From Escherichia phage vB_EcoM-pEK20: a DNA stretch of 64,000 nt. The position numbers were made by a program, and so were the translations under genes. This document shows positions 8,889 to 63,695 of this stretch, piece after piece. Every line of letters begins with the position of its first letter. Positions within the stretch are counted from its first letter, which is position 1. The stretch is from sequence record MZ868638.1. One strand, written 5' to 3'. A model generated the notes under the pieces. It was not told the DNA's origin and made no database searches. It worked only from the letters and a program-made list of their open reading frames with translations.

Positions 8889-9362
8889 ATGATTATCAAT
8901 GAAAACTCTTGGCACTTTAAAATTTATGCCGCGTTCAATAGTACATGGAATCGCCCGAAAACGTTGTGTGCTTATTTTTGGAAAACGTTAATCCCGGTAT
9001 TGGCTGTTTCAATTATTGGATTTGCGATTTTAGCAGCAGTCGTAATCATTGGCCAGGAAATTTTAACTAAATTCTTTGTTTTTAGCAGTCTATGGACATT
9101 AGTTCCAGCCTCAATTGGCGTAGGCATTTTAATGGTAGCAGTCATGGCTTTTATTGCTACCGGGTTGGTAATTGGCCCGTCTTGGCTGTTAGACAAATAT
9201 AACGACAGAAAATATTATAAAGAAATTGAGCTCATTGCGCAAAACCAAGAACGAATTAAAAATGGACTAGAGCCTATTGAACGTAAGAAATCATTAATAG
9301 GTGAATACCTTAAAGCTCGTAAAGAAAAAATCTGTCCTACTCTTGAATATAAGGCTAAATGA
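8889..9362 (+). CDS. Integral membrane protein (about 3 TM segments)
   Basis: Long hydrophobic stretches in translation. Confidence 0.4.
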   Translation: MIINENSWHFKIYAAFNSTWNRPKTLCAYFWKTLIPVLAVSIIGFAILAAVVIIGQEILTKFFVFSSLWTLVPASIGVGILMVAVMAFIATGLVIGPSWLLDKYNDRKYYKEIELIAQNQERIKNGLEPIERKKSLIGEYLKARKEKICPTLEYKAK

Positions 9363-10348
9363 TGAAAACGATTGTTAAGGCTTACTTTGGTAGCCATCTT
9401 TATGGAACGTCTACTCCTGAATCTGACATCGATTTTAAAGAAATTTATGTCCCTCATGCTCGTGATATCTTGACCGGTAACGTTAAAGAACACATGAGCA
9501 AGAACACGAATAACACATCTTCTAAGAACACAAAAGACGACGTGGACCATGAGTTGTATAGTCTCAAATATTTCTTTAAACTAGCTGCAGATGGCGAAAC
9601 CGTCGCATTAGATATGCTTCACACTCCACCAAGTTTAGTAGTTAAATCTGATTTGCCTGATGTATGGAAGTATATTCAAGATAACAGGTCTCGTTTCTAT
9701 ACCACTAACATGAAATCTTATTTAGGGTATGTCCGTAAGCAAGCTTCTAAATACGGTGTCAAGGGTTCTCGACTGGCTGTTCTTCGTCAAGCCCTTAAAC
9801 GTTCTAATGAATGGGGACAATACTTTGATAATGGTGCAGTAATTCGTTTATCACATATGAAGAATGTTCTGCCTGTAGGTGAATTTGCTTCGTGGATTGA
9901 AACTGAAAACGAGAAAACAGGTAAGCAAACATTCTATAATCTGTTAGACCGTAAATTCCAAGACACGTTAACCAATAAAGAGTTCAATGCCATCCTGGTT
10001 AAACTGGAAGAGAACTATGGTGAACGTGCTCGTAAGGCAGAAGCTAACGAAGGTATTGATTGGAAAGCATTGAGTCATGCATGTCGTGGTGGACTTCAAC
10101 TATTAGAAATTTATAAAACCGGCGACCTGGTTTACCCACTTCAGGATGCTCCATTTATTCTCGATGTTAAGCTCGGTAAACATACGTTTAAAACTGTACA
10201 AGAATTCCTAGAAGATATCGTCGACCAAGTTGAACATGCGTCAGAACAAGCTGCCAAGAACGGTATGCAACAAAAAGTAGATATGAGTTTCTGGGATGAT
10301 TTCCTTGAACAAGTCTATCTCGAAAATCATAATTCTTACTATAAATAA
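9359..10348 (+). CDS. Pol-beta-superfamily nucleotidyltransferase-fold protein
   Basis: FGSHLYGTSTPESDIDF fits the GS-x(9-13)-DxD nucleotidyltransferase signature. Confidence 0.45.
   Translation: MMKTIVKAYFGSHLYGTSTPESDIDFKEIYVPHARDILTGNVKEHMSKNTNNTSSKNTKDDVDHELYSLKYFFKLAADGETVALDMLHTPPSLVVKSDLPDVWKYIQDNRSRFYTTNMKSYLGYVRKQASKYGVKGSRLAVLRQALKRSNEWGQYFDNGAVIRLSHMKNVLPVGEFASWIETENEKTGKQTFYNLLDRKFQDTLTNKEFNAILVKLEENYGERARKAEANEGIDWKALSHACRGGLQLLEIYKTGDLVYPLQDAPFILDVKLGKHTFKTVQEFLEDIVDQVEHASEQAAKNGMQQKVDMSFWDDFLEQVYLENHNSYYK
10340..10347 (+). promoter_or_regulatory. Candidate T4 late promoter TATAAATA
   Basis: Exact TATAAATA 33 nt upstream of ORF 10380. Confidence 0.35.
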
Positions 10349-33066: not shown

Positions 33067-35778
33067 ATGAAAGAATTTTACTTAACGGTTGAACAGATTG
33101 GTGATTCAATTTTTGAACGTTACATCGATTCTAACGGTCGTGAACGTACTCGTGAAGTAGAATATAAACCATCACTGTTTGCTCATTGTCCAGAAAGTCA
33201 GGCTACGAAATATTTCGATATCTACGGTAAGCCGTGTACTCGTAAGTTGTTCGCCAATATGCGTGATGCCTCCCAATGGATTAAACGCATGGAAGATATC
33301 GGACTTGAAGCACTTGGCATGGACGATTTCAAATTGGCGTATTTGTCCGACACTTATAACTATGAAATAAAATACGACCATACAAAAATTCGTGTGGCTA
33401 ACTTCGACATCGAAGTAACATCTCCAGATGGGTTCCCTGAGCCATCACAAGCAAAACATCCGATTGATGCTATCACTCATTATGACTCAATTGACGACAG
33501 GTTCTACGTATTTGACCTTTTGAATTCTCCATACGGTAATGTAGAAGAATGGTCTATCGAAATTGCGGCTAAGCTTCAAGAACAAGGTGGTGATGAAGTT
33601 CCATCCGAAATTATCGATAAAATCATTTATATGCCGTTTGATAACGAAAAAGAATTGTTGATGGAATATCTCAACTTCTGGCAACAGAAAACTCCTGTCA
33701 TTTTGACTGGATGGAACGTTGAGTCATTTGATATTCCATATGTGTATAACCGAATCAAGAATATTTTTGGCGAATCTACTGCGAAACGTTTATCACCACA
33801 TCGTAAAACTCGTGTTAAAGTTATCGAAAACATGTATGGTTCTCGTGAAATCATTACATTGTTCGGTATCTCTGTTCTTGATTACATTGACCTTTACAAA
33901 AAATTCTCTTTTACCAATCAACCATCATATTCTCTGGATTACATTTCAGAATTTGAATTGAACGTTGGTAAACTGAAATATGACGGCCCTATTTCTAAGC
34001 TTCGTGAAAGCAATCACCAACGATATATTTCTTATAACATTATCGACGTATATCGTGTATTGCAAATTGACGCTAAGCGTCAGTTCATCAACTTGAGTTT
34101 GGACATGGGTTATTATGCTAAGATACAGATTCAATCTGTGTTTAGCCCAATTAAAACATGGGATGCTATTATTTTTAATAGCCTTAAAGAGCAGAACAAG
34201 GTGATTCCACAAGGTCGTTCTCACCCGGTTCAACCTTATCCAGGCGCTTTTGTTAAGGAACCTATTCCAAATCGGTACAAATATGTAATGAGTTTCGACC
34301 TTACATCTCTGTATCCAAGTATTATTCGCCAAGTGAATATTAGCCCAGAAACAATAGCAGGAACGTTTAAAGTAGCTCCATTGCATGATTATATTAACGC
34401 TGTTGCTGAACGTCCTTCTGATGTGTACAGTTGTTCTCCTAACGGCATGATGTATTATAAAGACCGTGACGGTGTTGTTCCAACTGAAATCACTAAGGTC
34501 TTTAATCAACGTAAAGAACATAAAGGTTACATGCTTGCAGCTCAACGTAATGGTGAAATAATTAAAGAGGCATTGCATAATCCTAATCTTTCTGTTGACG
34601 AACCATTAGATGTTGATTATCGTTTCGACTTCAGTGATGAGATTAAAGAAAAGATTAAAAAGTTGTCTGCTAAATCTCTTAACGAAATGTTGTTTAGAGC
34701 TCAACGTACTGAAGTTGCAGGTATGACTGCCCAAATTAACCGTAAATTGCTTATCAACTCACTTTATGGTGCACTTGGCAACGTTTGGTTCCGTTATTAT
34801 GATTTGCGTAATGCTACTGCAATCACAACATTCGGGCAAATGGCTTTACAGTGGATTGAACGTAAAGTTAATGAATATTTGAATGAAGTTTGTGGCACAG
34901 AAGGTGAAGCTTTCGTTCTTTATGGTGATACAGACTCTATTTACGTATCTGCTGATAAAATTATCGATAAGGTTGGTGAATCTAAATTCCGTGATACCAA
35001 CCATTGGGTAGACTTCTTAGATAAGTTTGCACGTGAACGTATGGAACCAGCTATTGATAGAGGTTTCCGTGAAATGTGTGAATACATGAACAATAAACAA
35101 CACTTAATGTTCATGGACCGAGAAGCTATCGCTGGGCCTCCACTCGGTTCTAAAGGTATTGGTGGATTCTGGACTGGTAAGAAACGTTATGCATTAAACG
35201 TGTGGGATATGGAAGGTACTCGTTACGCTGAGCCTAAACTCAAAATCATGGGTCTAGAGACTCAGAAATCTTCGACTCCTAAAGCAGTACAGAAAGCTCT
35301 TAAAGAATGTATTCGTCGTATGCTTCAAGAAGGTGAAGAATCATTACAAGAATATTTTAAAGAGTTTGAAAAAGAATTCCGTCAATTGAATTATATTAGC
35401 ATCGCGTCGGTATCTTCTGCGAATAACATTGCTAAATATGATGTAGGTGGATTCCCTGGTCCCAAATGCCCGTTCCATATTCGTGGAATTCTGACGTATA
35501 ACCGGGCTATCAAAGGTAATATCGATGCACCACAAGTTGTAGAAGGTGAAAAAGTATATGTTCTGCCTTTACGTGAAGGAAACCCATTCGGTGATAAATG
35601 TATCGCATGGCCTTCTGGTACTGAAATCACAGATTTAATTAAAGACGATGTACTTCATTGGATGGACTACACTGTTCTCCTTGAGAAGACATTTATTAAA
35701 CCACTTGAAGGATTCACATCAGCAGCGAAACTCGATTACGAGAAGAAAGCATCTCTGTTCGATATGTTCGATTTTTGA
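33067..35778 (+). CDS. 43: DNA polymerase (family B)
   Basis: 903 aa; matches RB69 gp43 (MKEFYLTVEQIGDSIFERYIDSNGRERTREVEYKPSLFAHCPESQATKYFDIYGKPC...) as recalled; motifs DIE exonuclease, YGDTDS. Confidence 0.97.
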   Translation: MKEFYLTVEQIGDSIFERYIDSNGRERTREVEYKPSLFAHCPESQATKYFDIYGKPCTRKLFANMRDASQWIKRMEDIGLEALGMDDFKLAYLSDTYNYEIKYDHTKIRVANFDIEVTSPDGFPEPSQAKHPIDAITHYDSIDDRFYVFDLLNSPYGNVEEWSIEIAAKLQEQGGDEVPSEIIDKIIYMPFDNEKELLMEYLNFWQQKTPVILTGWNVESFDIPYVYNRIKNIFGESTAKRLSPHRKTRVKVIENMYGSREIITLFGISVLDYIDLYKKFSFTNQPSYSLDYISEFELNVGKLKYDGPISKLRESNHQRYISYNIIDVYRVLQIDAKRQFINLSLDMGYYAKIQIQSVFSPIKTWDAIIFNSLKEQNKVIPQGRSHPVQPYPGAFVKEPIPNRYKYVMSFDLTSLYPSIIRQVNISPETIAGTFKVAPLHDYINAVAERPSDVYSCSPNGMMYYKDRDGVVPTEITKVFNQRKEHKGYMLAAQRNGEIIKEALHNPNLSVDEPLDVDYRFDFSDEIKEKIKKLSAKSLNEMLFRAQRTEVAGMTAQINRKLLINSLYGALGNVWFRYYDLRNATAITTFGQMALQWIERKVNEYLNEVCGTEGEAFVLYGDTDSIYVSADKIIDKVGESKFRDTNHWVDFLDKFARERMEPAIDRGFREMCEYMNNKQHLMFMDREAIAGPPLGSKGIGGFWTGKKRYALNVWDMEGTRYAEPKLKIMGLETQKSSTPKAVQKALKECIRRMLQEGEESLQEYFKEFEKEFRQLNYISIASVSSANNIAKYDVGGFPGPKCPFHIRGILTYNRAIKGNIDAPQVVEGEKVYVLPLREGNPFGDKCIAWPSGTEITDLIKDDVLHWMDYTVLLEKTFIKPLEGFTSAAKLDYEKKASLFDMFDF

Positions 35779-35818
35779 TATAATGTCATGGACGGTAAAC
35801 TAATTAAATGAGAGAAAT

Positions 35819-36454
35819 ATGAAAACTACTCCTATTACTATCGCTATTGACGCAATCATAAAACAAGCTTCTTCTTTGGCCGCTATGGCCAAAGTAATTA
35901 GTCAAAACCCTGCTCGTTATAATGCTATTCTAGAAACTCTTCGACGCCCGGGACTTAGTAATTATGAAAGTCGTGTAATTATTACAGGTGTGGGTAAGAA
36001 TGCTAATATTGCAACTAAAGCTTCTGAGACATTTGCTTCACTTGGTATCCCGAGTATGTACTTGAACACCGGGCATTATTCTCACGGTGATGCAGGATTC
36101 ATTGCGCCTAATGATGTGTTGATTCATATTAGTCGTTCTGGTAAAACTGAAGAAATGATAGGCGTGGCTAAGCATCTTAAAATGATTCGTCCGAACGTCA
36201 AACAGATTCTGTTGCATTGTAACCCAGACATTCCACAAGAAAATGAAGCCCTTTTTGATTACTCTTTCTGTACAGGCATCGCAGTAGAGGTTGATGAGAA
36301 TTCTCTGGCTCCGACTATGTCCACTACATTGTTGTTAGCGCTTATCGATACGTTTGCTATCAACCTTTCGTCTGAACGTGGATTTACCTCTAATGACTTC
36401 CTTAAGTTCCACCCTGGCGGTGCACTAGGTGCCATGTTACGAGGCGAACAATGA
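35819..36454 (+). CDS. SIS-domain sugar-phosphate isomerase, KdsD/GutQ-like (D-arabinose-5-phosphate isomerase family)
   Basis: GVGKNANIATKASETFASLGIPS...HGDAGF...HISRSGKTEE...LAPTMSTT...RGFTSNDFLKFHPGGALG parallels the E. coli KdsD SIS domain motif for motif. Confidence 0.75.
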   Translation: MKTTPITIAIDAIIKQASSLAAMAKVISQNPARYNAILETLRRPGLSNYESRVIITGVGKNANIATKASETFASLGIPSMYLNTGHYSHGDAGFIAPNDVLIHISRSGKTEEMIGVAKHLKMIRPNVKQILLHCNPDIPQENEALFDYSFCTGIAVEVDENSLAPTMSTTLLLALIDTFAINLSSERGFTSNDFLKFHPGGALGAMLRGEQ

Positions 36455-36635
36455 AAGCAATAACAATAGGACTTTTACTATTGATGCTTGTCATGACTAT
36501 CTACTGGAGCTTAACGGCTCCAGTAATGATTCCGACTCTTATAATCGGATGGATTATGATTGGACTACAAGCAAAGTATGAATGCTTTAACTAGAATAGT
36601 GTACAATACTCCTACTTACCAATGAGGACCACAAC

Positions 36636-38324
36636 ATGAAAAAAGCTGTTATTCTTGGTGCTGGACTGGCAACTCGTTTGTATCCAATAACGCATCATAT
36701 TCCTAAGGTGCTTGTTAACTATAAACAAGACACTATTCTGAGCAATTTGTATACAATTTATTCTGACCTTGGCGCAGATGAAATTATTGTAGTAGTTCAT
36801 TCAAAATTTGCTGAAACTGTTCGAGCTTATTGTGAGCAAGAAGGGTTCAATGTGACTATTCGTACAGTTGATGAAGCGTATGGTTCCGCTTATGCTCTTG
36901 CTAAATTACACAAAGATTTAGACGGCCATAATGTAATTGTTAACTGGTGTGATATTATTCCCGATTTTGGTTCATGGTCTTGGAATGTTAACGCAATCTA
37001 TGTTAAGGGCGACGAATGTCGTTATAATTTCGACGGTGAAAATATCACTAACGTAGGTTCAACAGGTGGTAATGTTGTAGGAATTTATCAGTTCAAAGAC
37101 TGGGAATTCTATATGGGTTCTACTGATGAGGAAATTCATGAATACTGCAAAGGACGTGATTTCGTAGAATTCCTTTACGGCAGCGCATTCAATAAATCAG
37201 AGCTTATGAATATCATCGACCTTGGTGATATGCCTAAACTTGAAAAAGCTCATGAAGTTCGTGAACTTAATCGTAGTTTTAATGCAGTTGAAATTGGCGA
37301 AGAAACGGTAACAAAGATTGCTTTAACAGAACAGGGCGTTGCACTTCAAAAAGATGAAGTCAATTGGTATAAGAAAGTTAAATCAGATTCAGTTCCACGG
37401 ATTGTAAGTTATCATCCTGGCGGCCACTTTATTATGGAACGCATTAAAGGTAAGCCAGCATTTGAATATATTAAATCCAAATCGAGTCTTGCTCGTCCAC
37501 AAATTGTTGATGCAATTTTAGACGCACTGAAATTCAGCACAGACACTTATTTTGTAAGTCCTGAAACTGTTCGTCGTGATTTCACTAAAGAATTCTATAC
37601 GAAAGTTATTGATCGTTGTGAAAGTATTCAACCATTGATTGATTCATTTGGTAAAATCACACATGTGAACTACACTAAGATTGGGCGTCTGAAGCCAATG
37701 CTGAAACAAGCTTTAGAACACCTTATTCGTTATCATAACCGTTCTCAGGGACAGTACTCTGTTATTCATGGTGACCCGAACTTCAGTAATACTATGATTA
37801 CTGATAATGGTGAAGTCAAGTTTATCGACCCTCGTGGATATTTTGGTGAAACCAAGATTTATGGGCCAAAATTGTATGATGAAGCTAAAGTGCTTTATGC
37901 TGTTTCAGGTTATGATGAATTCAACGCTAATCCGACCTGGGGTCAGTTTACTATTGATGAAACAACTTGTAATGTGACTATTAACATCAATCCATTAGTT
38001 TACAAATATGGAAAGATGAGTTCGTTTAATGAGTATCATCATTTGGCTGTAGCAATTATCTGGATTGCATTAGGTGGTTATTTCAAGAATAATCCACTTA
38101 AAGCGGTAGCCGCATATTATAAAGGTATGGAACTTCTGACTAAGCAATTACGTAACATGGGCCGTGTACTTCAGGACGGCACTATTAGTTATGATGTAGC
38201 AGAACCTGTAACGGCTACTCTGATTACAAAAAATCCTGGTAAATGGGTACTAACTGATAAAGAAACTGGTGTTTCTTATCGTCCAATCGGTGGCGATATC
38301 ACTCATCAATGGGAACGAATCTAA
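36636..38324 (+). CDS. Bifunctional sugar-1-phosphate nucleotidyltransferase (N-term) / APH-like sugar kinase (C-term)
   Basis: N-term KAVILGAGLATRLYPIT...PKVL is the GxGTRLxPxT nucleotidyltransferase signature; C-term IHGDPNFSNTMI plus KFIDPRGYFG is the HGDxxxxN / D-x-G catalytic pair of APH/choline-kinase-fold kinases. Confidence 0.7.
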   Translation: MKKAVILGAGLATRLYPITHHIPKVLVNYKQDTILSNLYTIYSDLGADEIIVVVHSKFAETVRAYCEQEGFNVTIRTVDEAYGSAYALAKLHKDLDGHNVIVNWCDIIPDFGSWSWNVNAIYVKGDECRYNFDGENITNVGSTGGNVVGIYQFKDWEFYMGSTDEEIHEYCKGRDFVEFLYGSAFNKSELMNIIDLGDMPKLEKAHEVRELNRSFNAVEIGEETVTKIALTEQGVALQKDEVNWYKKVKSDSVPRIVSYHPGGHFIMERIKGKPAFEYIKSKSSLARPQIVDAILDALKFSTDTYFVSPETVRRDFTKEFYTKVIDRCESIQPLIDSFGKITHVNYTKIGRLKPMLKQALEHLIRYHNRSQGQYSVIHGDPNFSNTMITDNGEVKFIDPRGYFGETKIYGPKLYDEAKVLYAVSGYDEFNANPTWGQFTIDETTCNVTININPLVYKYGKMSSFNEYHHLAVAIIWIALGGYFKNNPLKAVAAYYKGMELLTKQLRNMGRVLQDGTISYDVAEPVTATLITKNPGKWVLTDKETGVSYRPIGGDITHQWERI

Positions 38325-38710
38325 TGCACCGTGTAGAAAACATGCTTAATCTTTGTTTTGATGTCGATGATTGTATAACAGAGTGGAATAACAACCGTGA
38401 TTACGTGAACTTCAAACCAGACGTCGAAATGGTGACTGCCATTAATGCCCTGTACGATGCAGGGCATACCATAACGCTTTACACTGCTCGCGGTATGAAG
38501 TCAGTCGGTCCTGGTCGTATAGCAATTGACATTCTCCCAAGTCTGATTCAGAACTTGGCAAACATTGGATTGAAGTACCATAATTTGCTAACACATAAAC
38601 CAGTATATGATTGGATTATCGACGACAAAGCTATGCGTCCTGACGAATTCAAAGCTCTTATGAATAAAGGCGAATTCGAAACATTTAAATCGTATAAACC
38701 GAATCTATAA
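38324..38710 (+). CDS. HAD-superfamily phosphatase, KdsC-like
   Basis: FDVDDCIT (KdsC FDVDGVLT), TLYTAR, IIDDKAM (motif IV DD); start 38324 overlaps upstream stop, alternative 38309. Confidence 0.6.
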   Translation: MHRVENMLNLCFDVDDCITEWNNNRDYVNFKPDVEMVTAINALYDAGHTITLYTARGMKSVGPGRIAIDILPSLIQNLANIGLKYHNLLTHKPVYDWIIDDKAMRPDEFKALMNKGEFETFKSYKPNL

Positions 38711-38766
38711 TAATTTAAGTAAGACCTGCAAAAACCATCGCGTCAATTAACGTGAGATGCAAAAAA

Positions 38767-39927
38767 ATGAATACTTTTAAAATCGGAACGAATTTTGATT
38801 TAGCTCTTCTTGATAAAATCGTAGAGCTCAATAAAACTTATCCTAATAGCTTGATAAACGAAGTATACGGCTCTACAAGAGAAATGGCTTTTGTAGCAGC
38901 CAGACCTGATTTTAGGCTTCCTGACGTTGACAAAAAGATGTTAGAAGATTACGTTAAACGTTGTAACGAATTAGGTATTTGCTTTAACTATACACTCAAC
39001 ACGATAAATCCTGGTTCAAAAAGAGAACTAGTTGAGTGGAAGAAGAAAGCTATTCAGGATTATGTTCAGTATCTTTGGTCAATAGGCGTATGGCGTATTA
39101 CTATCGCTAACCCTGTTGTTATGGAAATTGTTCGTGAAGTCAATAAAGACATTGAGATTGAAGTTTCAACAATTCTACATGTCGATGCTGTAACTCAAAT
39201 CAAATACTTGCATGACCAGTATAATATCAAAAAGGTCTGCTGTGGAATTCATAAGAACCGTTCGGTTTCTTTCCTGAAGCGTGCAGCAGAGTTTTGCAAT
39301 AAGAACAATATAATATTTGAAGTTCTTGTAAATGAGTTCTGTTCTAATGCTGGTAAAGGGTATACAACACATTGTAGCTATCGTGACTCTTGCTATATTT
39401 TCCATAGTACTGATGTTACCGCTGATGATGCTAAATCCTTAAATGGATATCCAATGCAACACTGCATTAAAGCTCGTGATACAGATCCATTTAACTGGTT
39501 GAGAACTCGTTTTGTTCGTCCTCAAGATTTGAAACTTTATAATGATATTGGTATCACTCAATTCAAAGTTTCAGGACGTACAGGTAGCACAGACTACATT
39601 TTGAAAGTTCTTGAAGCTTATGCTTCCGAAAAATTTGAAGGTAATTTGTTGGAATTGTGGAAGCCTTTAGAGACCATTTTCACTCTTGAAAATGAGACCG
39701 AGTTTTCACATACGGTAAATATTGAAACCTCTTTGTTAGATGGCTTTTTAGAAAAAAGGTGGTTCAGACATCCAGATTTCGATTGTGCTAATGAAATCTG
39801 TGGGACGACGTGTACATATTGTGAAAGATATTATAAACGTCAATTATCTAAAAATGGGTTATCAGAAAACTCTATATCTATTATTGATATAACTAACTCT
39901 GACGACGCTTTGAGGTACCCAGAATGA
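38767..39927 (+). CDS. Cys-rich enzyme of unknown family (possible Fe-S/metal-binding)
   Basis: Central Cys cluster KVCCGIH...EFCNKNN...EFCSNAGKGYTTHCSYRDSCY and C-terminal CANEICGTTCTYCERYY; fold not assignable by eye. Confidence 0.4.
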   Translation: MNTFKIGTNFDLALLDKIVELNKTYPNSLINEVYGSTREMAFVAARPDFRLPDVDKKMLEDYVKRCNELGICFNYTLNTINPGSKRELVEWKKKAIQDYVQYLWSIGVWRITIANPVVMEIVREVNKDIEIEVSTILHVDAVTQIKYLHDQYNIKKVCCGIHKNRSVSFLKRAAEFCNKNNIIFEVLVNEFCSNAGKGYTTHCSYRDSCYIFHSTDVTADDAKSLNGYPMQHCIKARDTDPFNWLRTRFVRPQDLKLYNDIGITQFKVSGRTGSTDYILKVLEAYASEKFEGNLLELWKPLETIFTLENETEFSHTVNIETSLLDGFLEKRWFRHPDFDCANEICGTTCTYCERYYKRQLSKNGLSENSISIIDITNSDDALRYPE

Positions 39928-40206
39928 TTTCTAGAAAAACTTTTAACCACCAACTTAATGAAGAGATTTTGACTATGAAAATTAACAGCAACGAACAAAT
40001 TCTTAAAAAGGCCCTTATGGGCCTGTTTGAAACCAAAGCGGCTTAAAGTGATTAAAGAACCTGTTCAATTGTAATACTACGCTGATGCATTTCTTCATAG
40101 TGTCCTTGGAAGTATCGATGCCGAAGCTCTACGTTATATCAACATCGCTAAGAAATTCAAATAAGCTTTATGAATTGAGTATATAATAAATTGTATTGAG
40201 GTAAAC

Positions 40207-40923
40207 ATGGGAAAACATAACACAATGAAATATATTAAAGCCGCAGATTTTCAATCCGCATTTAAAGCTGTCAATCGTGAAATTTTAGAAAACCCGGAAT
40301 TCGTAACTGATTCTCGTATTGGACGTTGTAATGAAATTGGGTCTATGACAGTAGTTGTTGACACTCCATCATCATTCAAAATGACCGACCCACGTATTAA
40401 CCGCATCTCTTATGAATATGCTGAAGACTTCTGGAAGTTTATGGTTTCTGGTGGTACTGATGCAGAAGAAGCATTTAAGGCATATCCTAACGTTGCTAAA
40501 TTTATTTCTAAACCTAAATCAGACGCTTTGCCTGCAAACTTCAACACTTTCTACGGTCCACGAATTGCGGCCCAATTACCAGCTCTTTTAAAAGAACTTA
40601 AAGAGAAGCCTAACTCTCGAAGAGTTGTGTTTCAAATTCTTGAAAGTTCTGATCAGGCTTTGCTTGATTCGGACGAAACGCTTGAATATCCATGTACTGA
40701 CTCAGTGACTTATTATATTCGTGATGGTAAGCTTTATACCCACTGCCATATGCGTTCTCAGAACTGTGCTGTTGTTATGCAGTTGGATTTTTATCTCCAA
40801 GGAAAATTACTTCATTATATCGCTAACGAATGTGGTGTAGAAGTTGGTGATTATACTCATACCATGGTAAGTGCCCATGTGTTTGAACGTGATTTTGATT
40901 ATGTTAAAGGATTCCTTGACTAA
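40207..40923 (+). CDS. 42: Thymidylate-synthase-fold pyrimidine hydroxymethylase (gp42-like, divergent)
   Basis: KPNSRRVVFQIL (TS NPxSRR), YPCTDSV (nucleophile PC), MRSQNCAVVMQLD (TS RSxD...N/D specificity position is Asp); position equals T4 gene 42. Confidence 0.65.
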   Translation: MGKHNTMKYIKAADFQSAFKAVNREILENPEFVTDSRIGRCNEIGSMTVVVDTPSSFKMTDPRINRISYEYAEDFWKFMVSGGTDAEEAFKAYPNVAKFISKPKSDALPANFNTFYGPRIAAQLPALLKELKEKPNSRRVVFQILESSDQALLDSDETLEYPCTDSVTYYIRDGKLYTHCHMRSQNCAVVMQLDFYLQGKLLHYIANECGVEVGDYTHTMVSAHVFERDFDYVKGFLD

Positions 40924-41822
40924 TGGCTATTTTCCGCGTACCTATCTTGAGTATGCGGTCTTATGAAACTGGACAGTATGCTATCCTTAAGGATGGCAAC
41001 TTCCAACTTCATTTGCACCGTGCTAATCCAGGTGATGTGATTACATATCCACGTAATGCATCTGATATTAAAGAATGTGAACGTCTTTTCCCAGAATTTA
41101 AGTTTGTTCCATTATGGTATAAAGATAACGCGTATAACACTCGTAAATATTTCTGGTCTGAAAATGAATTTGTGGTTGATTCATTAATTGCTTATTATGA
41201 TTGTGATTTTCTAATAACAGATATCACTGGATATGATGGTGCTTTTGATGTAGAATTCAATTTCAATATCACCGCAGACCCTAATAAACCGCGTTTTTAT
41301 ATTGACGAATTCTTAAAAACCGACATGTTGTCGGTTAATCGTTCACTTCAAACTACTGTGTTGAATGAACGTCAAAAGGAAGTGCTGGTTAACGCTGGTG
41401 CGGATGGTAATAAGATTATCGTAACGCAGAAAGTTATACGTCCTTCCATCATGCAGCGTCTTGTAGGTGATTTGGCTCCTATTCATCTAGATGGTATTTT
41501 TCATCCATTTCGAATTAGTGACCCGTGCTATCGTTTTGAACAAGTGGTTGAATGTGCAATTCAATTAGGCCAACCGCTTTATATAACCGATCCAAATAAT
41601 AGCTTCGACAGAAATAAGTATCCTGAAGAAGCGCTGATTCGAATTTTTAAACCAACTAAAACCGAGTACTATCAAATTCTTAAAGGACGTCCAAAGATTC
41701 AATATTTCGAAAATCCTGAAGAAGTATTCCATCCAGGTCTTGGTGAGTTCATCTACTTTAATGCTTTAATTTCTTCGCCGTATAATATACCTAAATACGA
41801 AGATGTCGTAATCGAGGAATAA
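40923..41822 (+). CDS. Hypothetical protein at the T4 beta-gt position
   Basis: 299 aa; no motif I can assign. Confidence 0.35.
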   Translation: MAIFRVPILSMRSYETGQYAILKDGNFQLHLHRANPGDVITYPRNASDIKECERLFPEFKFVPLWYKDNAYNTRKYFWSENEFVVDSLIAYYDCDFLITDITGYDGAFDVEFNFNITADPNKPRFYIDEFLKTDMLSVNRSLQTTVLNERQKEVLVNAGADGNKIIVTQKVIRPSIMQRLVGDLAPIHLDGIFHPFRISDPCYRFEQVVECAIQLGQPLYITDPNNSFDRNKYPEEALIRIFKPTKTEYYQILKGRPKIQYFENPEEVFHPGLGEFIYFNALISSPYNIPKYEDVVIEE

Positions 41823-41823
41823 A

Positions 41824-42372
41824 ATGGCTAAAATTATTTTAGTAGATGGCCCGGATAATGCTGGTAAAACAACTTTCATTAATGACATAATGGAAATTAG
41901 TGAAAGATATGTAAAGATTGATTTCCCTAAACGAACGGTTGATGGACGTTTCGATGTTAAGTCTCGAAATGAAGTTGGCTGTTTCGAAACGATGCTGAAT
42001 TATTTAGACCCTACTAAGATTTATCTGTTAGATCGTGGATATATTAGTAACTGGGTTTACGGACGTATTCGACAAGATGCGGACTCGGTTCTTGACGTTT
42101 ATGAACAGGATTATGTTCGTCTTTGCCAAAACCATGATGTGTTCACAATTATTTTAACACGTAACGAAATGACTGAAAGTTTTGAAGACGACCTTATTAC
42201 TTTGTCTTCATTCGGTTTTAATACAGTAATTTCATATTTTGAAGAGTTTGCAATCCATAACGAAATCCAAACGTATCAATTACTTAATCATGATGGTGCT
42301 AACAAAGTTATAGGATTTAATGCAAGCGAACGTAATAATTTGATTACAGAAATTATCAAATGGGCTCGTTAA
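41824..42372 (+). CDS. Tmk-like P-loop nucleoside monophosphate kinase
   Basis: IILVDGPDNAGKTT Walker A and LLDRGYISNWVYG resemble thymidylate kinase DRY motif region. Confidence 0.45.
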   Translation: MAKIILVDGPDNAGKTTFINDIMEISERYVKIDFPKRTVDGRFDVKSRNEVGCFETMLNYLDPTKIYLLDRGYISNWVYGRIRQDADSVLDVYEQDYVRLCQNHDVFTIILTRNEMTESFEDDLITLSSFGFNTVISYFEEFAIHNEIQTYQLLNHDGANKVIGFNASERNNLITEIIKWAR

Positions 42373-42471
42373 GAGCCTGTTTAAAGTTTTAAATGCTGTA
42401 TAACCCTTAGTATATAATCGTCTTATCTTTTAAACATGAGTAAAATATAATGATGCCTATGGAAAAATACA

Positions 42472-43644
42472 ATGTCTGATTTAAAATCTCGTCTGATTAA
42501 AGCTTCTACTTCTAAAATGACTGCAGACTTGACTAAGTCTAAGTTGTTTAATAATCGCGATGAAGTCCCTACTCGTATTCCGATGTTGAATATTGCATTA
42601 GGTGGTGCACTGAATGCTGGGTTGCAATCAGGCTTAACTATTTTTGCTGCTCCTTCTAAACACTTTAAAACGTTGTTTGGACTGACCATGGTTGCAGCAT
42701 ATATGAAGAAATATAAAGATGCAATTTGTTTGTTCTATGATTCAGAATTTGGTGCTTCAGAATCTTATTTTCGTTCGATGGGTGTTGATTTAGACCGTGT
42801 AGTTCATACTCCGATTCAATCTGTCGAACAACTTAAAGTTGATATGACTAATCAGCTTGACGCGATTGAACGCGGTGATAAAGTTATTATCTTTATCGAT
42901 TCAATTGGTAATACTGCATCTAAGAAAGAAACCGAAGATGCGTTGAACGAGAAAGTTGTAGGTGATATGTCTCGTGCTAAGGCACTTAAATCTCTGTTCC
43001 GCATTGTGACTCCTTATCTGACTATTAAAGATATTCCGTGTGTTGCAATCAACCATACAGCAATGGAAATTGGCGGACTATATCCTAAAGAGATTATGGG
43101 TGGTGGTACAGGTATTCTTTACTCTGCTAACACTGTATTCTTTATCTCTAAACGTCAGGTTAAAGAAGGTACAGAATTGACCGGTTATGACTTCACGTTG
43201 AAAGCAGAAAAATCTCGTACAGTTAAAGAGAAATCTACTTTCCCAATCACAGTCAATTTCGATGGCGGTATCGACCCATTCAGTGGCTTGTTAGAAATGG
43301 CAACTGAAATTGGTTTTGTAGTTAAGCCTAAAGCCGGGTGGTATGCTCGAGAATTCCTTGACGAAGAAACAGGCGAAATGATTCGTGAAGAGAAATCATG
43401 GCGTGCTAAAGCTACTGATTGTGTAGAATTCTGGGGACCGTTGTTTAAACACAAACCTTTCCGAGATGCAATTGAAACTAAATATAAACTAGGTGCTATC
43501 TCTTCTATTAAAGAAGTCGATGACGCTGTTAACGACCTTATTAATTGCAAAGCAACAACTAAAGTTCCGGTTAAAACTTCTGATGCTCCGTCTGCAGCAG
43601 ATATAGAAAACGACCTTGACGAAATGGAAGATTTCGATGAATAA
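42472..43644 (+). CDS. uvsX: RecA-like recombinase UvsX
   Basis: 390 aa; RecA core motifs, matches T4 UvsX. Confidence 0.9.
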   Translation: MSDLKSRLIKASTSKMTADLTKSKLFNNRDEVPTRIPMLNIALGGALNAGLQSGLTIFAAPSKHFKTLFGLTMVAAYMKKYKDAICLFYDSEFGASESYFRSMGVDLDRVVHTPIQSVEQLKVDMTNQLDAIERGDKVIIFIDSIGNTASKKETEDALNEKVVGDMSRAKALKSLFRIVTPYLTIKDIPCVAINHTAMEIGGLYPKEIMGGGTGILYSANTVFFISKRQVKEGTELTGYDFTLKAEKSRTVKEKSTFPITVNFDGGIDPFSGLLEMATEIGFVVKPKAGWYAREFLDEETGEMIREEKSWRAKATDCVEFWGPLFKHKPFRDAIETKYKLGAISSIKEVDDAVNDLINCKATTKVPVKTSDAPSAADIENDLDEMEDFDE

Positions 43645-43978
43645 TCTCGATGATTTAAATCTAGAAATCGTTGATGAATCCCCTTCTTCGGAAGGGGAAG
43701 ACATTCGCAAAGAACGAGTGTTTAATGAATCTCTTAAAATTGTCCGTTCAGCAATGGAAAATGTCATTCAAGAGATTCTGATTACGCTTGAAGATGGTTC
43801 TCATCATATAGTCTATATTACAAAACTAGACTGGGTTGATGGTAAAATCGTAATGGACTTTGCAGTTCTTGACCAGGACAGAAAAGCAGAACTTGCACCA
43901 CATGTTGAAAAATGTGTTACAATGCAAGTACAACAAGCTTTTAATGAACGGGCCAAGAAAAAATTTAGATTCTTTTAA
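43637..43978 (+). CDS. 40: Head vertex assembly chaperone gp40-like
   Basis: Position between uvsX and 41; start could be 43616 or 43637. Confidence 0.5.
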   Translation: MNNLDDLNLEIVDESPSSEGEDIRKERVFNESLKIVRSAMENVIQEILITLEDGSHHIVYITKLDWVDGKIVMDFAVLDQDRKAELAPHVEKCVTMQVQQAFNERAKKKFRFF

Positions 43979-43987
43979 GGAGTTATC

Positions 43988-45430
43988 GTGGTAGAAATTA
44001 TTTTGTCTCATCTAGTATACGACCAGGCTTATTTTTCTAAGGTCTGGCCTTATATGGATTCTGAGTATTTTGAGCGTGGACCGGCAAAAAATGTCTTTAA
44101 AATTATAAAGAGCCACGTTAACGAATATAATGCAATGCCGTCTATCAATGCATTAAAGGTGGCTTTAGATAACAGTTCTTTAACTGAAGCCGAATATAAA
44201 GGAACTTCAGACCTAATTGAAAAATTGGCTGATACTCCTGAAGACCACGAATGGTTGGTTAAAGAAACTGAGAAATATGTCCAGCAAAAAGCGATGTATA
44301 ATGCTACATCCAAAATCATTGAGATTCAGTCTAATGCTGAACTACCTCCAGAACAACGTAACAAGAAAATGCCTGACGTAGGAGCTATTCCTGATATTAT
44401 GCGTCAAGCACTTTCAATTTCGTTTGATAGTTATGTTGGACATGACTGGATGGAAGACTATGAAGCACGCTGGCTTTCTTATCTGAACAAAGCACGTAAG
44501 GTCCCGTTCAAATTAAACATTCTGAATAAAATCACTAAAGGTGGTGCTGAAACCGGTACACTGAATGTTTTAATGGCTGGTGTTAACGTTGGTAAATCTT
44601 TAGGCCTTTGTTCACTTGCTGCAGATTATCTTCAAACAGGTCATAATGTTCTTTATATTTCCATGGAAATGGCTGAAGAAGTTTGTGCTAAGCGTATAGA
44701 TGCAAACATGCTTGACGTATCACTCGATGATATCGATGATGGTAACGTATCTTATGCTGAATATAAAGCCAAGATGGAAAAATGGCGTTCAAAATCCACA
44801 TTAGGACGTTTAGTGGTTAAACAGTATCCTACTGGCGGAGCTAATGCTAATACATTCCGTGCATTGCTTAATGAATTGAAACTCAAGAAGAACTTTGTGC
44901 CATCTGTAATCATGGTTGATTACTTAGGTATTTGTGGGTCTTGTCGTATCAGAGTTTACACTGAAAATAGCTACACATTAGTTAAAGCTATCGCAGAAGA
45001 ACTTCGTGCATTAGCAGTAGAATCTGAAACAGTTCTATGGACTGCAGCTCAAGTAGGACGTGCAGCATGGGATGCTTCGGATATGAACATGAGCGATATT
45101 GCAGAATCAGCAGGTTTACCAGCAACGGCAGATTTCATGTTGGCCGTAATTGAAACCGAAGAACTTGCACAAGCTGAACAACAACTTATCAAACAAATCA
45201 AATCACGATATGGTGATAAGAATAAGTGGAATAAATTCCTGATGGGTGTACGTAAAGGCAACCAGAAATGGATTGAGATTGAGCAAGAAGGCATGAACAC
45301 ATCTAACACAGTAAATGAAAACGCAGGTGCTCAGATGCGTCAGGCAGAGGTGAATCGTACGGAACGCGTAGGTAAAGCCAAAGCAACACGTGCTGACCTA
45401 GATAGCTTAGCCAATGAGTTAAAATTTTAA
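43988..45430 (+). CDS. 41: Replicative DNA helicase gp41 (DnaB-like)
   Basis: GTG start MVEIILSHLVYDQAYFSKVWPYMDSEYF matches T4 gp41; Walker A GVNVGKS. Confidence 0.9.
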   Translation: MVEIILSHLVYDQAYFSKVWPYMDSEYFERGPAKNVFKIIKSHVNEYNAMPSINALKVALDNSSLTEAEYKGTSDLIEKLADTPEDHEWLVKETEKYVQQKAMYNATSKIIEIQSNAELPPEQRNKKMPDVGAIPDIMRQALSISFDSYVGHDWMEDYEARWLSYLNKARKVPFKLNILNKITKGGAETGTLNVLMAGVNVGKSLGLCSLAADYLQTGHNVLYISMEMAEEVCAKRIDANMLDVSLDDIDDGNVSYAEYKAKMEKWRSKSTLGRLVVKQYPTGGANANTFRALLNELKLKKNFVPSVIMVDYLGICGSCRIRVYTENSYTLVKAIAEELRALAVESETVLWTAAQVGRAAWDASDMNMSDIAESAGLPATADFMLAVIETEELAQAEQQLIKQIKSRYGDKNKWNKFLMGVRKGNQKWIEIEQEGMNTSNTVNENAGAQMRQAEVNRTERVGKAKATRADLDSLANELKF

Positions 45431-46728: not shown

Positions 46729-47097
46729 ATGAAAAAATTAATCGCTTTAGCAATGGTATTTGGATTAACCGGATGTGGTGCCCATGGCTTTATCCCTAAT
46801 AACGTTGGCCAACTGATTTACAATCCGAATGTTAAACAGTATGACCAACCTAAAGTTGAAGTGGAAGACCCGGTTACTGTAGGTAATCGAATGATTCAAG
46901 CTGATGCCCATGCTCAACGTTATCGTGACTCTGATACTGTAGCATTGTCAAAAGAACAACGCGTTAAAGAACATTGTCTACAATCTACTGAAATCGCATT
47001 CATTCGCTATGTTGAAACAACTGGTAAAGAGCCTACCCAGAAACAAATCGCAAATAACTACGTCCAGTGTATTGAACGTTTAAACAAATTTAACTAA
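46729..47097 (+). CDS. Lipoprotein (lipobox LTGC)
   Basis: MKKLIALAMVFGLTGC signal/lipobox. Confidence 0.5.
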   Translation: MKKLIALAMVFGLTGCGAHGFIPNNVGQLIYNPNVKQYDQPKVEVEDPVTVGNRMIQADAHAQRYRDSDTVALSKEQRVKEHCLQSTEIAFIRYVETTGKEPTQKQIANNYVQCIERLNKFN

Positions 47098-47158
47098 TTG
47101 GTTTACACCAAAGTTAAAATAAGATACTATAAACATAACAAATCAAGAGGAAATTAAC

Positions 47159-47407
47159 ATGGAATTATTCGTAGCTAGTTCAGTAGCAGTTTTAATCGCA
47201 GGTATTGGTTCAATCATCATTTACATGTTGCCTTGGGTAATCGCACTTATTCGTGGCACAAAAAGCACAACAGCAATCTTCTTTGTATCTTTACTCTTTA
47301 ACTGGACGATGATTGGTTGGATTGGAACTTTAATTTGGTCTATCGTTGCCGAAAAGAAATCTGCTCAGCAGCCTCAACAAGTAATTATTATTCGCGAAAA
47401 AGAATAA
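47159..47407 (+). CDS. Small two-TM membrane protein, Imm-like (superinfection immunity candidate)
   Basis: Two hydrophobic helices, adjacent to sp. Confidence 0.35.
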   Translation: MELFVASSVAVLIAGIGSIIIYMLPWVIALIRGTKSTTAIFFVSLLFNWTMIGWIGTLIWSIVAEKKSAQQPQQVIIIREKE

Positions 47408-62594: not shown

Positions 62595-63695
62595 ATGAAA
62601 GTTATGTTTATCCCATCTCGTGCAGTCCCATTTAATCCTGACCGTGTACAAGGTGGTCTTGAAGCAGTACATTTAAATGTGTTGAAATATCTTGTGTCCA
62701 TCGGTGCTGATATTGATTATATCGGCTTTGATAATGACACGTTTGGTGACTGGAAAGTTACACACCATCCTGTTGGTCATCTGACTAAATTTAGTCTAGG
62801 TATGAGTTATACTATGGCTCGTAAGATTGTTGAACTAGCCGGCATCCATGAATACGATTTTGTTGTTACTATGGAACCGACTAAACTAACCGTTCAGGCA
62901 ATTAAAGACGCAGGTCTCTCTAAAGTTCATAAGAATTTTATGGCAACACCATTTGAACCGGTATCTCGTGGCATTGTTCAAATTTGGGACCAGACTATTC
63001 AAATTCATAAGAATGGTGGTAAGAGTTATGCTCCTACTAAAGCCTTCCGTGAATTTGAACGCAAATATTGTTATATGACTTCAGGTCTGACTGACAAAAT
63101 TGATTATGATTATTGGCGAGCAAATCCGTTGTTTGAAGCCGAAGATTATCCGGTTATTTGTTTGAATGAGAAACCTGAAGTTCTTCCGGCGACTGATCTG
63201 ATTATTAGTGCACAACGTTATGACACTAAAATGCGTCGTACTGATGTTGCTCTTGAAGCGATTAAAGCACTAGGCGAAAATGGTGTAGGATACTGTCCAA
63301 GCAAATGGGCACCACCAGCTAAATATCCTGTTATTATTGATGCTCCACACAGTGAAATCATGGAACGTCTTAAAACAGCTAAAGCGCTTATTAATACGTG
63401 TCCTGACACAGGTACGGTAGAGAATAGTTCTATTGAAGCCATCTCTAAAGGTGTCCCTGTAATCCAGTTAGTTTTTAAGGATTATCCTCATGCGACATTC
63501 GAATACGACCCAGATACTGTGCGTGTAGAAATTGATTCCTCTACTCCTAAGAAAGAAGTAGTTGCGCTTTACACAAAAGCTGTATTAGAATTCACTGACA
63601 CATACGAAGCTCGAGTTAAACGTGCTGAAGCAGTATGGAAGAAGTATAACCGAGATGCAGTTGTTGCGATGTGGGATAAAATCTTCACAGCGTAA
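62595..63695 (+). CDS. GT-B fold glycosyltransferase (candidate hydroxymethyl-cytosine sugar transferase)
   Basis: N-terminal Rossmann-like beta-strand/Gly loop and E-x7-E-like region SIEAISKGVPVI; sits between gene 39 and rIIA.1. Confidence 0.55.
   Translation: MKVMFIPSRAVPFNPDRVQGGLEAVHLNVLKYLVSIGADIDYIGFDNDTFGDWKVTHHPVGHLTKFSLGMSYTMARKIVELAGIHEYDFVVTMEPTKLTVQAIKDAGLSKVHKNFMATPFEPVSRGIVQIWDQTIQIHKNGGKSYAPTKAFREFERKYCYMTSGLTDKIDYDYWRANPLFEAEDYPVICLNEKPEVLPATDLIISAQRYDTKMRRTDVALEAIKALGENGVGYCPSKWAPPAKYPVIIDAPHSEIMERLKTAKALINTCPDTGTVENSSIEAISKGVPVIQLVFKDYPHATFEYDPDTVRVEIDSSTPKKEVVALYTKAVLEFTDTYEARVKRAEAVWKKYNRDAVVAMWDKIFTA

Follow-up and report, generated by a model that had tools for sequence, protein, structure and literature searches.

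The open reading frame (ORF) at positions 40207 to 40923 of the 64,000-nucleotide stretch of Escherichia phage vB_EcoM-pEK20 analysed here in full (MZ868638.1; hereafter the window) very probably encodes a 5-hydroxy-dCMP synthase (dCMP, deoxycytidine monophosphate), a member of the thymidylate synthase (TS) superfamily predicted to employ a flavin/O2 monooxygenase chemistry in place of folate chemistry. We put the probability of this assignment at about 95%. The ORF has the sequence GAGG seven bases 5' of its ATG, lies between gene 43 and uvsX directly 5' of a 299-codon ORF, and its product is matched over residues 122-235 by the Pfam family Thymidylat_synt (PF00303, E 2.4e-15, above the gathering score). 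The window is colinear with positions ~2216-65236 of phage RB69 at 94-98% identity, so its source, as judged by sequence, is an RB69-like Mosigvirus. At the DNA level the ORF is 98.2% identical to RB69 ORF048c, and a DNA-level comparison found the gene in 161 phage records; the protein shares 236 of 238 residues with RB69 gp48 (differences S17T and V80I) and is ~99% identical to AfhB of phage HY126.

The assignment builds on published work with these orthologues and with their counterpart in Acinetobacter phage DLP3. In RB69 and DLP3, 5-hydroxycytosine carrying one or more arabinoses takes the place of all cytosine, the sugar being joined to C5 by an ether bond (Lee et al., Nucleic Acids Research (NAR) 2026, PMC13326640). 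When RB69 gp48 or DLP3 gp80 is expressed in E. coli together with a phage deoxynucleoside monophosphate (dNMP) kinase, 5-hydroxydeoxycytidine (5hodC) appears in DNA; the 5hodC made by RB69 gp48 co-elutes with an authentic standard and draws its oxygen from 18O2, whereas with T4 gp42 this assay yields 5-hydroxymethyldeoxycytidine (5hmdC), and the purified hydroxylase is yellow and releases flavin mononucleotide (FMN) (PMC13326640). That paper credits a flavin-bound crystal structure and in vitro reconstitution to He et al. (Nat Chem Biol 2026). DNA of Mosigvirus NP contains 5-arabinosyl-dC (PMC13390438), and the arabinose of Mosigvirus DNA is ether-linked straight to C5 without a methylene bridge (PMC13326640; PMC13390438). 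A first-pass annotation of the window had labelled the gene a divergent hydroxymethylase, a label that does not survive the finding that RB69 gp48, different at 2 of 238 residues, makes 5-hydroxy-dCMP with 18O from O2; its suggestion of altered cofactor handling, in contrast, was borne out, as the orthologue employs flavin and O2 and not methylene-tetrahydrofolate (methylene-THF) (PMC13326640). The function of the enzyme was therefore already published in 2025-2026, and the window holds one more near-identical member without new biology.

Residues are discussed here with E. coli ThyA positions mapped onto the window protein by alignment. The protein carries the motifs PNSRR (R138 and R139), YPC (C163), RSQN (R183, S184 and N186) and QLD (D194); the first-pass annotation had listed these catalytic motifs correctly apart from a slight misquotation, NPxSRR for a stretch that reads KPNSRR. 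C163 corresponds to ThyA C146, E160 to L143 (L143E), N186 to D169 (D169N) and D194 to N177 (N177D), and D194 also aligns with D179 of T4 gp42. The proposed Asp at the base-specificity Asn of TS is thus in place, and it supports the cytosine specificity that had been thought plausible. The Asn of RSQN, by comparison, had been passed over as a tolerated variant ('RSxN/D') and turns out to be the published D169N mark that parts hydroxylases from hydroxymethylases and thymidylate synthases; Lee et al. give it as a hydroxylase signature alongside N177D and L143E, and in their wider set only D169N is fully consistent (PMC13326640). The Asp at this position is kept in T4 gp42, E. coli ThyA and the td protein of RB69. 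C163, E160, N186, D194, R138, R139, R183, S184 and H224 are invariant in 40 homologues (53-87% identity) as well as in gp216 of Rhizobium phage RL38J1, a protein 30% identical to that of the window and experimentally a 5-hydroxy-dCMP synthase. Throughout the compared hydroxylases, moreover, ThyA G173 is replaced by Val (V190) and W80 by Ala (A97), while Gly and Trp are kept in T4 gp42, ThyA and td, the W80 column belonging to the N-terminal region, where the alignment is less reliable. The replacement of W80, D169 and G173 would fit a loss of folate binding, because all three presumably contact the folate cofactor in E. coli ThyA. The alignment also shows a C-terminal segment of ~45 ThyA residues to be missing from the window protein; the equivalent of ThyA E58 differs between two alignments, being Trp in one and Phe in the other.

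Structural comparison points the same way. An AlphaFold model of the window protein, built on the 40 homologues, reached a mean predicted local distance difference test score (pLDDT) of 89. A sequence search of the PDB matched entries 9IQC, 9IR2 and 9IQU (E 1e-159 to 1e-162), with three differences in the full-length 9IQC chain, and Foldseek placed the model on 9IQC, 'Monooxygenase dependent on riboflavin with dCMP and FAD' (flavin adenine dinucleotide), at a template modelling (TM) score of 0.94 and 99% identity. The model also superposes on 9IQU, 'phage HY126 dCMP hydroxylase-AfhB with substrate dCMP', which was released on the same day as 9IQC (2025-07-16). Together with the PF00303 match and the location between 43 and uvsX, this confirms the TS fold at the gene 42 position that had been proposed from the sequence. 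The closest solved structure outside the family is MilA, the CMP 5-hydroxymethylase of mildiomycin biosynthesis (PDB 5JNH, 5B6D; TM 0.84, 23% identity), which likewise has a cytosine nucleotide as substrate but is a folate-dependent hydroxymethylase acting on a ribonucleotide and is ~80 residues longer; no entry for the T4 dCMP hydroxymethylase was among the 50 best Foldseek matches in the PDB.

The degree of divergence from T4 was assessed by searching T4 proteins against the window by tblastn. T4 gp42 matched the ORF at 40207-40923 and nothing else, with 24.3% identity over 218 amino acids (E 4e-10, 52 bits), as against 62-85% for the neighbouring replication and recombination proteins (Table 1). 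The contrast drawn in the first-pass annotation therefore stands, although the flanking proteins it called near-identical to their T-even counterparts are well conserved only, and the high identity to gp42 that it had named as the outcome speaking against it was not seen in the alignments to gp42 and ThyA. The window protein is in fact no closer to gp42 than to E. coli ThyA (30% over 115 amino acids, 57 bits), in agreement with the distinct lineage that had been suggested. A canonical gp42 encoded elsewhere was considered and rejected, as tblastn with T4 gp42 matches only the hydroxylase ORF in the window and only ORF048c in the whole RB69 genome. The other TS-family gene of the complete RB69 genome is the canonical td (143526-144386); with ORF048c and td as its only TS-family genes, the RB69-like phage lineage is, on the genomic evidence, one without an ordinary gene 42. 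The order in T4 is 43-imm.1-imm-42-beta-gt-segA-uvsX-40-41 and that in the window 43-[sugar genes]-TS-like-glycosyltransferase-kinase-uvsX-40-41, such that the TS-like ORF and the 299-codon ORF stand where T4 has gene 42 and beta-gt. T4 beta-gt itself has no tblastn match anywhere in the window, and neither a-gt nor b-gt is found among the annotations of RB69. Because the nearest structure outside the family is MilA, with no T4 dCMP hydroxymethylase in the top 50 Foldseek matches, these data suggest that gene 42 was displaced by a different branch of the TS superfamily rather than having diverged in place.

The older view of RB69, under which the ORF would be a highly diverged but working dCMP hydroxymethylase, that is, a gp42 analogue using methylene-THF, is in our estimate very improbable. 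It accommodates the TS fold, the Cys nucleophile, the Asp at N177 and the acidic residue at L143, all as in T4 gp42 and MilA, as well as the location at the gene 42 position, and it agrees with several database annotations ('dCMP hydroxymethylase') and with a 2018 report of arabinosyl-hydroxymethylcytosine in RB69 (PMC6024577). Nuclear magnetic resonance and mass spectrometry show the C5 ether linkage, however, and the 2018 assignment is now called erroneous (PMC13390438); the opposite products of RB69 gp48 and T4 gp42 in one assay, with 18O entering 5hodC from 18O2 (PMC13326640), and the clade-wide replacement of the D169, G173 and W80 of gp42, ThyA and td by N186, V190 and A97 also tell against it. 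Many GenBank records carry yet another label, which would make the protein a second thymidylate synthase or a dCMP methyltransferase, and to this we give next to no chance. The Pfam, NCBIfam and PHROG matches are indeed all to 'thymidylate synthase' families, but every NCBIfam score is far under its curated cutoff (e.g., 68 vs 175 bits), the Asp at N177 disfavours dUMP (deoxyuridine monophosphate), L143 and D169 are replaced by Glu and Asn, and the segment absent from the C-terminus is the one that closes over folate in ThyA. The phage family has in addition a separate canonical td, as seen in RB69, and RB69 DNA contains no product of the 5-methylcytosine type (PMC13326640).

Some caution towards the 5-hydroxy-dCMP synthase assignment is nevertheless in order. 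The activity data come from the orthologues RB69 gp48 and HY126 AfhB, and the window protein would take its place beside them by orthology. The sources differ on the flavin used in vivo: the NAR paper has FMN, whereas the titles of the PDB entries name FAD or riboflavin. The covalent step between Cys and C6, finally, would carry over from thymidylate synthase chemistry by analogy.

Among characterised enzymes, RB69 gp48, HY126 AfhB (99% identity) and DLP3 gp80 (69%) have the same length, fold and residues at C146, L143E, D169N and N177D as the window protein, and their clusters share the glycosyltransferase, the Tmk-like kinase and the UDP-arabinose (uridine diphosphate arabinose) genes with the window. 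What sets the window apart from gp48 and AfhB are 2-3 conservative substitutions away from the catalytic positions and a disrupted orthologue of the upstream ORF049c. The likeness to T4 gp42 (PDB 1B5E family) extends from membership of the TS superfamily, dCMP as substrate, the Cys nucleophile, the base-specificity Asp and the acidic residue at L143 to a genome position beside a DNA glycosyltransferase and to the role as first committed step of cytosine hypermodification. Besides the low identity (24%), the alignment sets the two apart by Asn at D169, Val at G173 and Ala at W80, and their chemistries differ in that methylene-THF leads to 5-CH2OH in T4, and flavin and O2 to 5-OH in the hydroxylases.

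The hydroxylase gene is clustered with genes for a DNA glycosyltransferase, a Tmk-like kinase and nucleoside diphosphate sugar metabolism (35819-42372 of the window; Table 1), and the same cluster core is found in RB69, Bas46, JS98, DLP3, RL38J1, LC53, Rgz1 and Thanatos-2. Upstream of the hydroxylase gene are GCTTTA (40165-40170) and, after 11 nucleotides, TATAAT (40182-40187), a pair kept in RB69 and nearly so in Bas46, which we take to resemble a T4 middle promoter (MotA box and -10 element). Promoter and terminator scans of 35700-42500 gave sites no more numerous than in shuffled sequence, and no enrichment of the T4 late-promoter motif was found.

From these genes we propose a pathway in which the dCTPase gp56 would yield dCMP, the hydroxylase would turn it into 5-hydroxy-dCMP, kinases would raise this to the triphosphate, and the phage polymerase would insert the modified nucleotide instead of C. 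The two glycosyltransferases, one next to the hydroxylase and one near rIIA, would then add arabinofuranose to the 5-OH on DNA, with UDP-arabinofuranose supplied by the upstream isomerase, kinase/uridylyltransferase and HAD phosphatase. In the active site, by analogy with thymidylate synthase, C163 would attack C6 of dCMP while D194 reads the N3/N4 face of the cytosine; the activated C5 would attack a flavin-bound oxygen species derived from O2, as the published 18O2 and flavin data would allow, and the Cys would then depart. A gp1-type dNMP kinase (RB69 gp159), encoded outside the window, phosphorylates 5-hydroxy-dCMP, and it was this separate enzyme, not the Tmk-like kinase, that was employed in the published assays (PMC13326640). 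The Tmk-like kinase may also phosphorylate 5-hydroxy-dCMP; it accompanies the TS-like gene in the clusters of RB69, JS98, DLP3 and RL38J1 and is also present in the metagenomic locus L052 described below, so that every cluster examined has it. The 562-codon kinase/nucleotidyltransferase and the 299-codon glycosyltransferase are unbroken in the window and are split in the RB69 record (ORF052c/053c and ORF046c/047c); both splits are described as sequencing errors (PMC13326640), with which the intact ORFs of the window agree.

Table 1. Features of the window named in the text; the identity column gives amino acid identity between T4 and window proteins in tblastn searches.
Feature	Position	Strand	Identity to T4	Basis or remark
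gp43	33067-35769		62%	tblastn with T4 protein
Predicted arabinose-5-phosphate isomerase (SIS domain; RB69 gp55)	35819..36454	+		Domain matches; PMC13326640
Predicted bifunctional sugar kinase/nucleotidyltransferase (RB69 gp52:53, AfhE-like), would make UDP-arabinofuranose	36636..38324	+		Intact 562-aa ORF; PMC13326640
Predicted HAD-type phosphatase (RB69 gp51, AfhF-like), arabinose-1,5-bisphosphate to arabinose-1-phosphate	38309..38710	+		NCBIfam capsule biosynthesis phosphatase; PMC13326640
Peptidase-U32-family protein (RB69 gp50), candidate prephenate-dependent hydroxylase	38752..39927	+		Pfam PF01136, 42.2 bits vs cutoff 22.4
RB69 ORF049c orthologue (79 aa), disrupted	39924..40165	+		Sequence comparison; phrog_8601, a PHROG without assigned function
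Probable 5-hydroxy-dCMP synthase (dCMP 5-hydroxylase; RB69 gp48/HY126 AfhB orthologue)	40207..40923	+		ATG start, 238 aa, TS fold; key residues C163, E160, N186, D194
Predicted DNA arabinosyltransferase 1 (RB69 gp46:47)	40923..41822	+		Single intact 299-aa ORF at beta-gt position; phrog_3891; PMC13326640 Table 1
Thymidylate-kinase-like (Tmk-like) nucleotide kinase (RB69 gp45)	41824..42372	+		phrog_761
UvsX	42472-43641		68%	tblastn with T4 protein
gp40	43637-43975		81%	tblastn with T4 protein
gp41	43988-45427		85%	tblastn with T4 protein
gp56 dCTPase orthologue; would supply dCMP and exclude dCTP from phage DNA	50433..50969	+		Colinear with RB69p028; listed ORF starts at TTG
RB69 gp3 orthologue, second predicted DNA arabinosyltransferase	62595..63695	+		Colinear with RB69p003; PMC13326640 Table 1
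gp46			83%	tblastn
gp45			79%	tblastn
RegA			79%	tblastn
gp44			78%	tblastn
gp62			74%	tblastn
gp61			74%	tblastn

The same cluster contains a candidate for a second hydroxylase, the gene for a Peptidase-U32-family protein, which Lee et al. list without discussion as 'sugar or heterocycle reductase' (PMC13326640). Characterised U32 proteins are O2-independent hydroxylases with prephenate as oxygen donor, their substrates being 23S rRNA (RlhA, ho5C2501), tRNA (TrhP, ho5U34) and ubiquinone (UbiU/UbiV) (PMC5727448, PMC6599085, PMC10990095). We suggest, as the reading we favour for U32 although we hold it to be less likely than not, that the phage protein, of the iron-sulfur type, is a prephenate-dependent and O2-independent pyrimidine C5 hydroxylase offering a second route to the hydroxylated base, with the TS-like flavin/O2 enzyme as the aerobic half of a dual system. 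Such a system may parallel, by analogy, the pairings of TrhO with TrhP (tRNA ho5U) and of UbiI,H,F with UbiU,V (ubiquinone). RB69 retains the anaerobic ribonucleotide reductase genes nrdD and nrdG, so that O2-free replication is to be expected. Since DLP3, which is without U32, makes the arabinosyl-5-hydroxycytosine base of RB69 (PMC13326640), U32 should add no new chemical group in aerobic growth.

The distribution and genomic company of U32 give this idea some plausibility. Among T4-like phages, 221 records carry U32 at no less than 80% identity, every one of them from a host in the Enterobacterales or in Shewanella; the TS-like hydroxylase is found in 342 records, 57 of them Acinetobacter phages, and none of these 57 has U32. 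In Serratia phage LC53 a chorismate mutase (Pfam CM_2, 44.6 bits vs cutoff 27) lies between U32 and the TS-like gene, homologues of it occur in 54 T4-like records, and it still adjoins U32 in the rearranged clusters of Shewanella phage Thanatos-2 and Morganella phage Rgz1; the window has no chorismate mutase. U32 homologues at 37-58% identity were also found in ~33 unrelated large viral contigs, for which genes were counted within 10 kb of U32, i.e., over 20 kb per contig. Of these ~33 loci, 16 have an AfhE-like gene, nine the isomerase, seven a relative of the window glycosyltransferase, six a gene of the DAHP (3-deoxy-D-arabino-heptulosonate 7-phosphate) synthase family, five a dCMP deaminase and two a chorismate mutase. 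Locus L052 (IMG/VR 3300033463_004353) has the order glycosyltransferase (of the PHROG of the window gene), isomerase, AfhE-like, Tmk-like kinase, DAHP synthase-chorismate mutase fusion, HAD phosphatase and U32, the fusion scoring 163 bits for DAHP synthase vs 53 for KDO8P (3-deoxy-D-manno-octulosonate 8-phosphate) synthase. By gene content, L052 would be the cluster of the window with a prephenate-supply module added and the TS-like hydroxylase taken away. DAHP synthase genes beside U32 and arabinose-type sugar-activation genes are seen at 7302-8357 of L052, as the chorismate mutase fusion, and at 9145-9891 of a second locus (L016); shikimate-pathway enzymes are thus encoded by uncultivated viruses.

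Two further loci (L013, 7447-9086; L017, 7504-9083) have a gene of the dCMP deaminase family directly upstream of U32, overlapping the U32 start in L013. Both are large viral contigs with PolIII-alpha, one of them 466 kb, and genes for thymidylate kinase and uracil-DNA glycosylase (UDG) lie nearby; the presence of these dCMP deaminase, thymidylate kinase and UDG genes hints that U32 there acts on pyrimidine nucleotides. Within 10 kb of U32 in the unrelated viral loci there was no TS-family gene except one of canonical ThyA type. A scan of the same collection with an AfhB profile recovered none of the unrelated U32-bearing contigs, and did recover 15 of 15 T4-like U32 contigs plus JS98 and Acinetobacter phages, which lack U32, so that the phyletic pattern appears to be one of AfhB only, U32 only or both. 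Examples of contigs in the U32-only group are IMGVR_UViG_3300033463_004353 (74 kb) and 3300045988_171958 (294 kb).

At the protein level, ten cysteines are invariant in 27 U32 homologues. In the alignment, the U32 signature Cys pair and UbiV C180, which we take to be an Fe-S ligand, correspond to C208 and C214 of the phage protein, and the 'K-I-x-G-R' motif aligns as well. The phage protein thus shares the Peptidase_U32 domain and the signature Cys region with RlhA, TrhP, UbiU and UbiV, and its gene is linked to chorismate mutase and DAHP synthase; the four E. coli proteins are very distant from it (profile E 1e-5 to 0.16), and it differs from them by a further motif, CX4CX3CX2C, at the C-terminus. 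A fold search returned as top match 5D88, an uncharacterised U32 protein, followed by generic TIM barrels, and a sequence search against the PDB gave no match.

Several observations weigh against a role of U32 in base hydroxylation. Its occurrence follows that of the sugar-activation genes no less closely than that of the nucleotide genes, E. coli phages of the JS98 type are without it, the E. coli enzymes resemble its product very remotely, and the metagenomic contigs were examined over 20 kb each. A rule by which facultatively anaerobic hosts go with U32 was rejected, since the JS98-type Dhakaviruses, which infect E. coli, have the TS-like gene and lack U32; the correlation between host and U32 is moreover confounded by phylogeny, because the Acinetobacter phages form one clade. 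No published link of phage U32 or chorismate mutase to base hydroxylation was found in the literature surveyed, which did not extend to He et al. 2026 and Mahler et al. 2025.

Other parts of the interval between 43 and uvsX also differ from related phages. The ORF049c orthologue, intact in RB69 and Bas46, has an extra T near 40043-40044 that brings in a stop at 40044-40046; a separate substitution, G to T at 40072, creates TAA in the original frame. ORF049c sits in the slot that holds chorismate mutase in other genera; that RB69 ORF049c could be a diverged chorismate mutase was considered but gained no support, as it has no Pfam match and no BLAST similarity to the LC53 enzyme. The genes imm and imm.1 (46735-47404, + strand) lie downstream of gene 41 and dmd in the window and between 43 and 42 in T4, so the 43-42 interval was remodelled upon acquiring the arabinose cluster. 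Imm.1 of the window is 32% identical to that of T4, and T4 segA has no counterpart in the window.

If the reading of U32 as a second hydroxylase were true, phages of gut bacteria could make 5-hydroxycytosine, and keep their DNA modified, under anoxia, and prephenate-dependent hydroxylation would extend from RNA and quinones to DNA. The TS-like hydroxylase demonstrates how a folate-dependent scaffold for methyl transfer has been turned into a flavin monooxygenase, and it founds a whole class of O-glycosylated cytosines by which phage DNA is protected against CRISPR and restriction enzymes. Most database records still name these proteins 'dCMP hydroxymethylase' or 'thymidylate synthase', labels for which the Asn at D169 provides a simple corrective marker.

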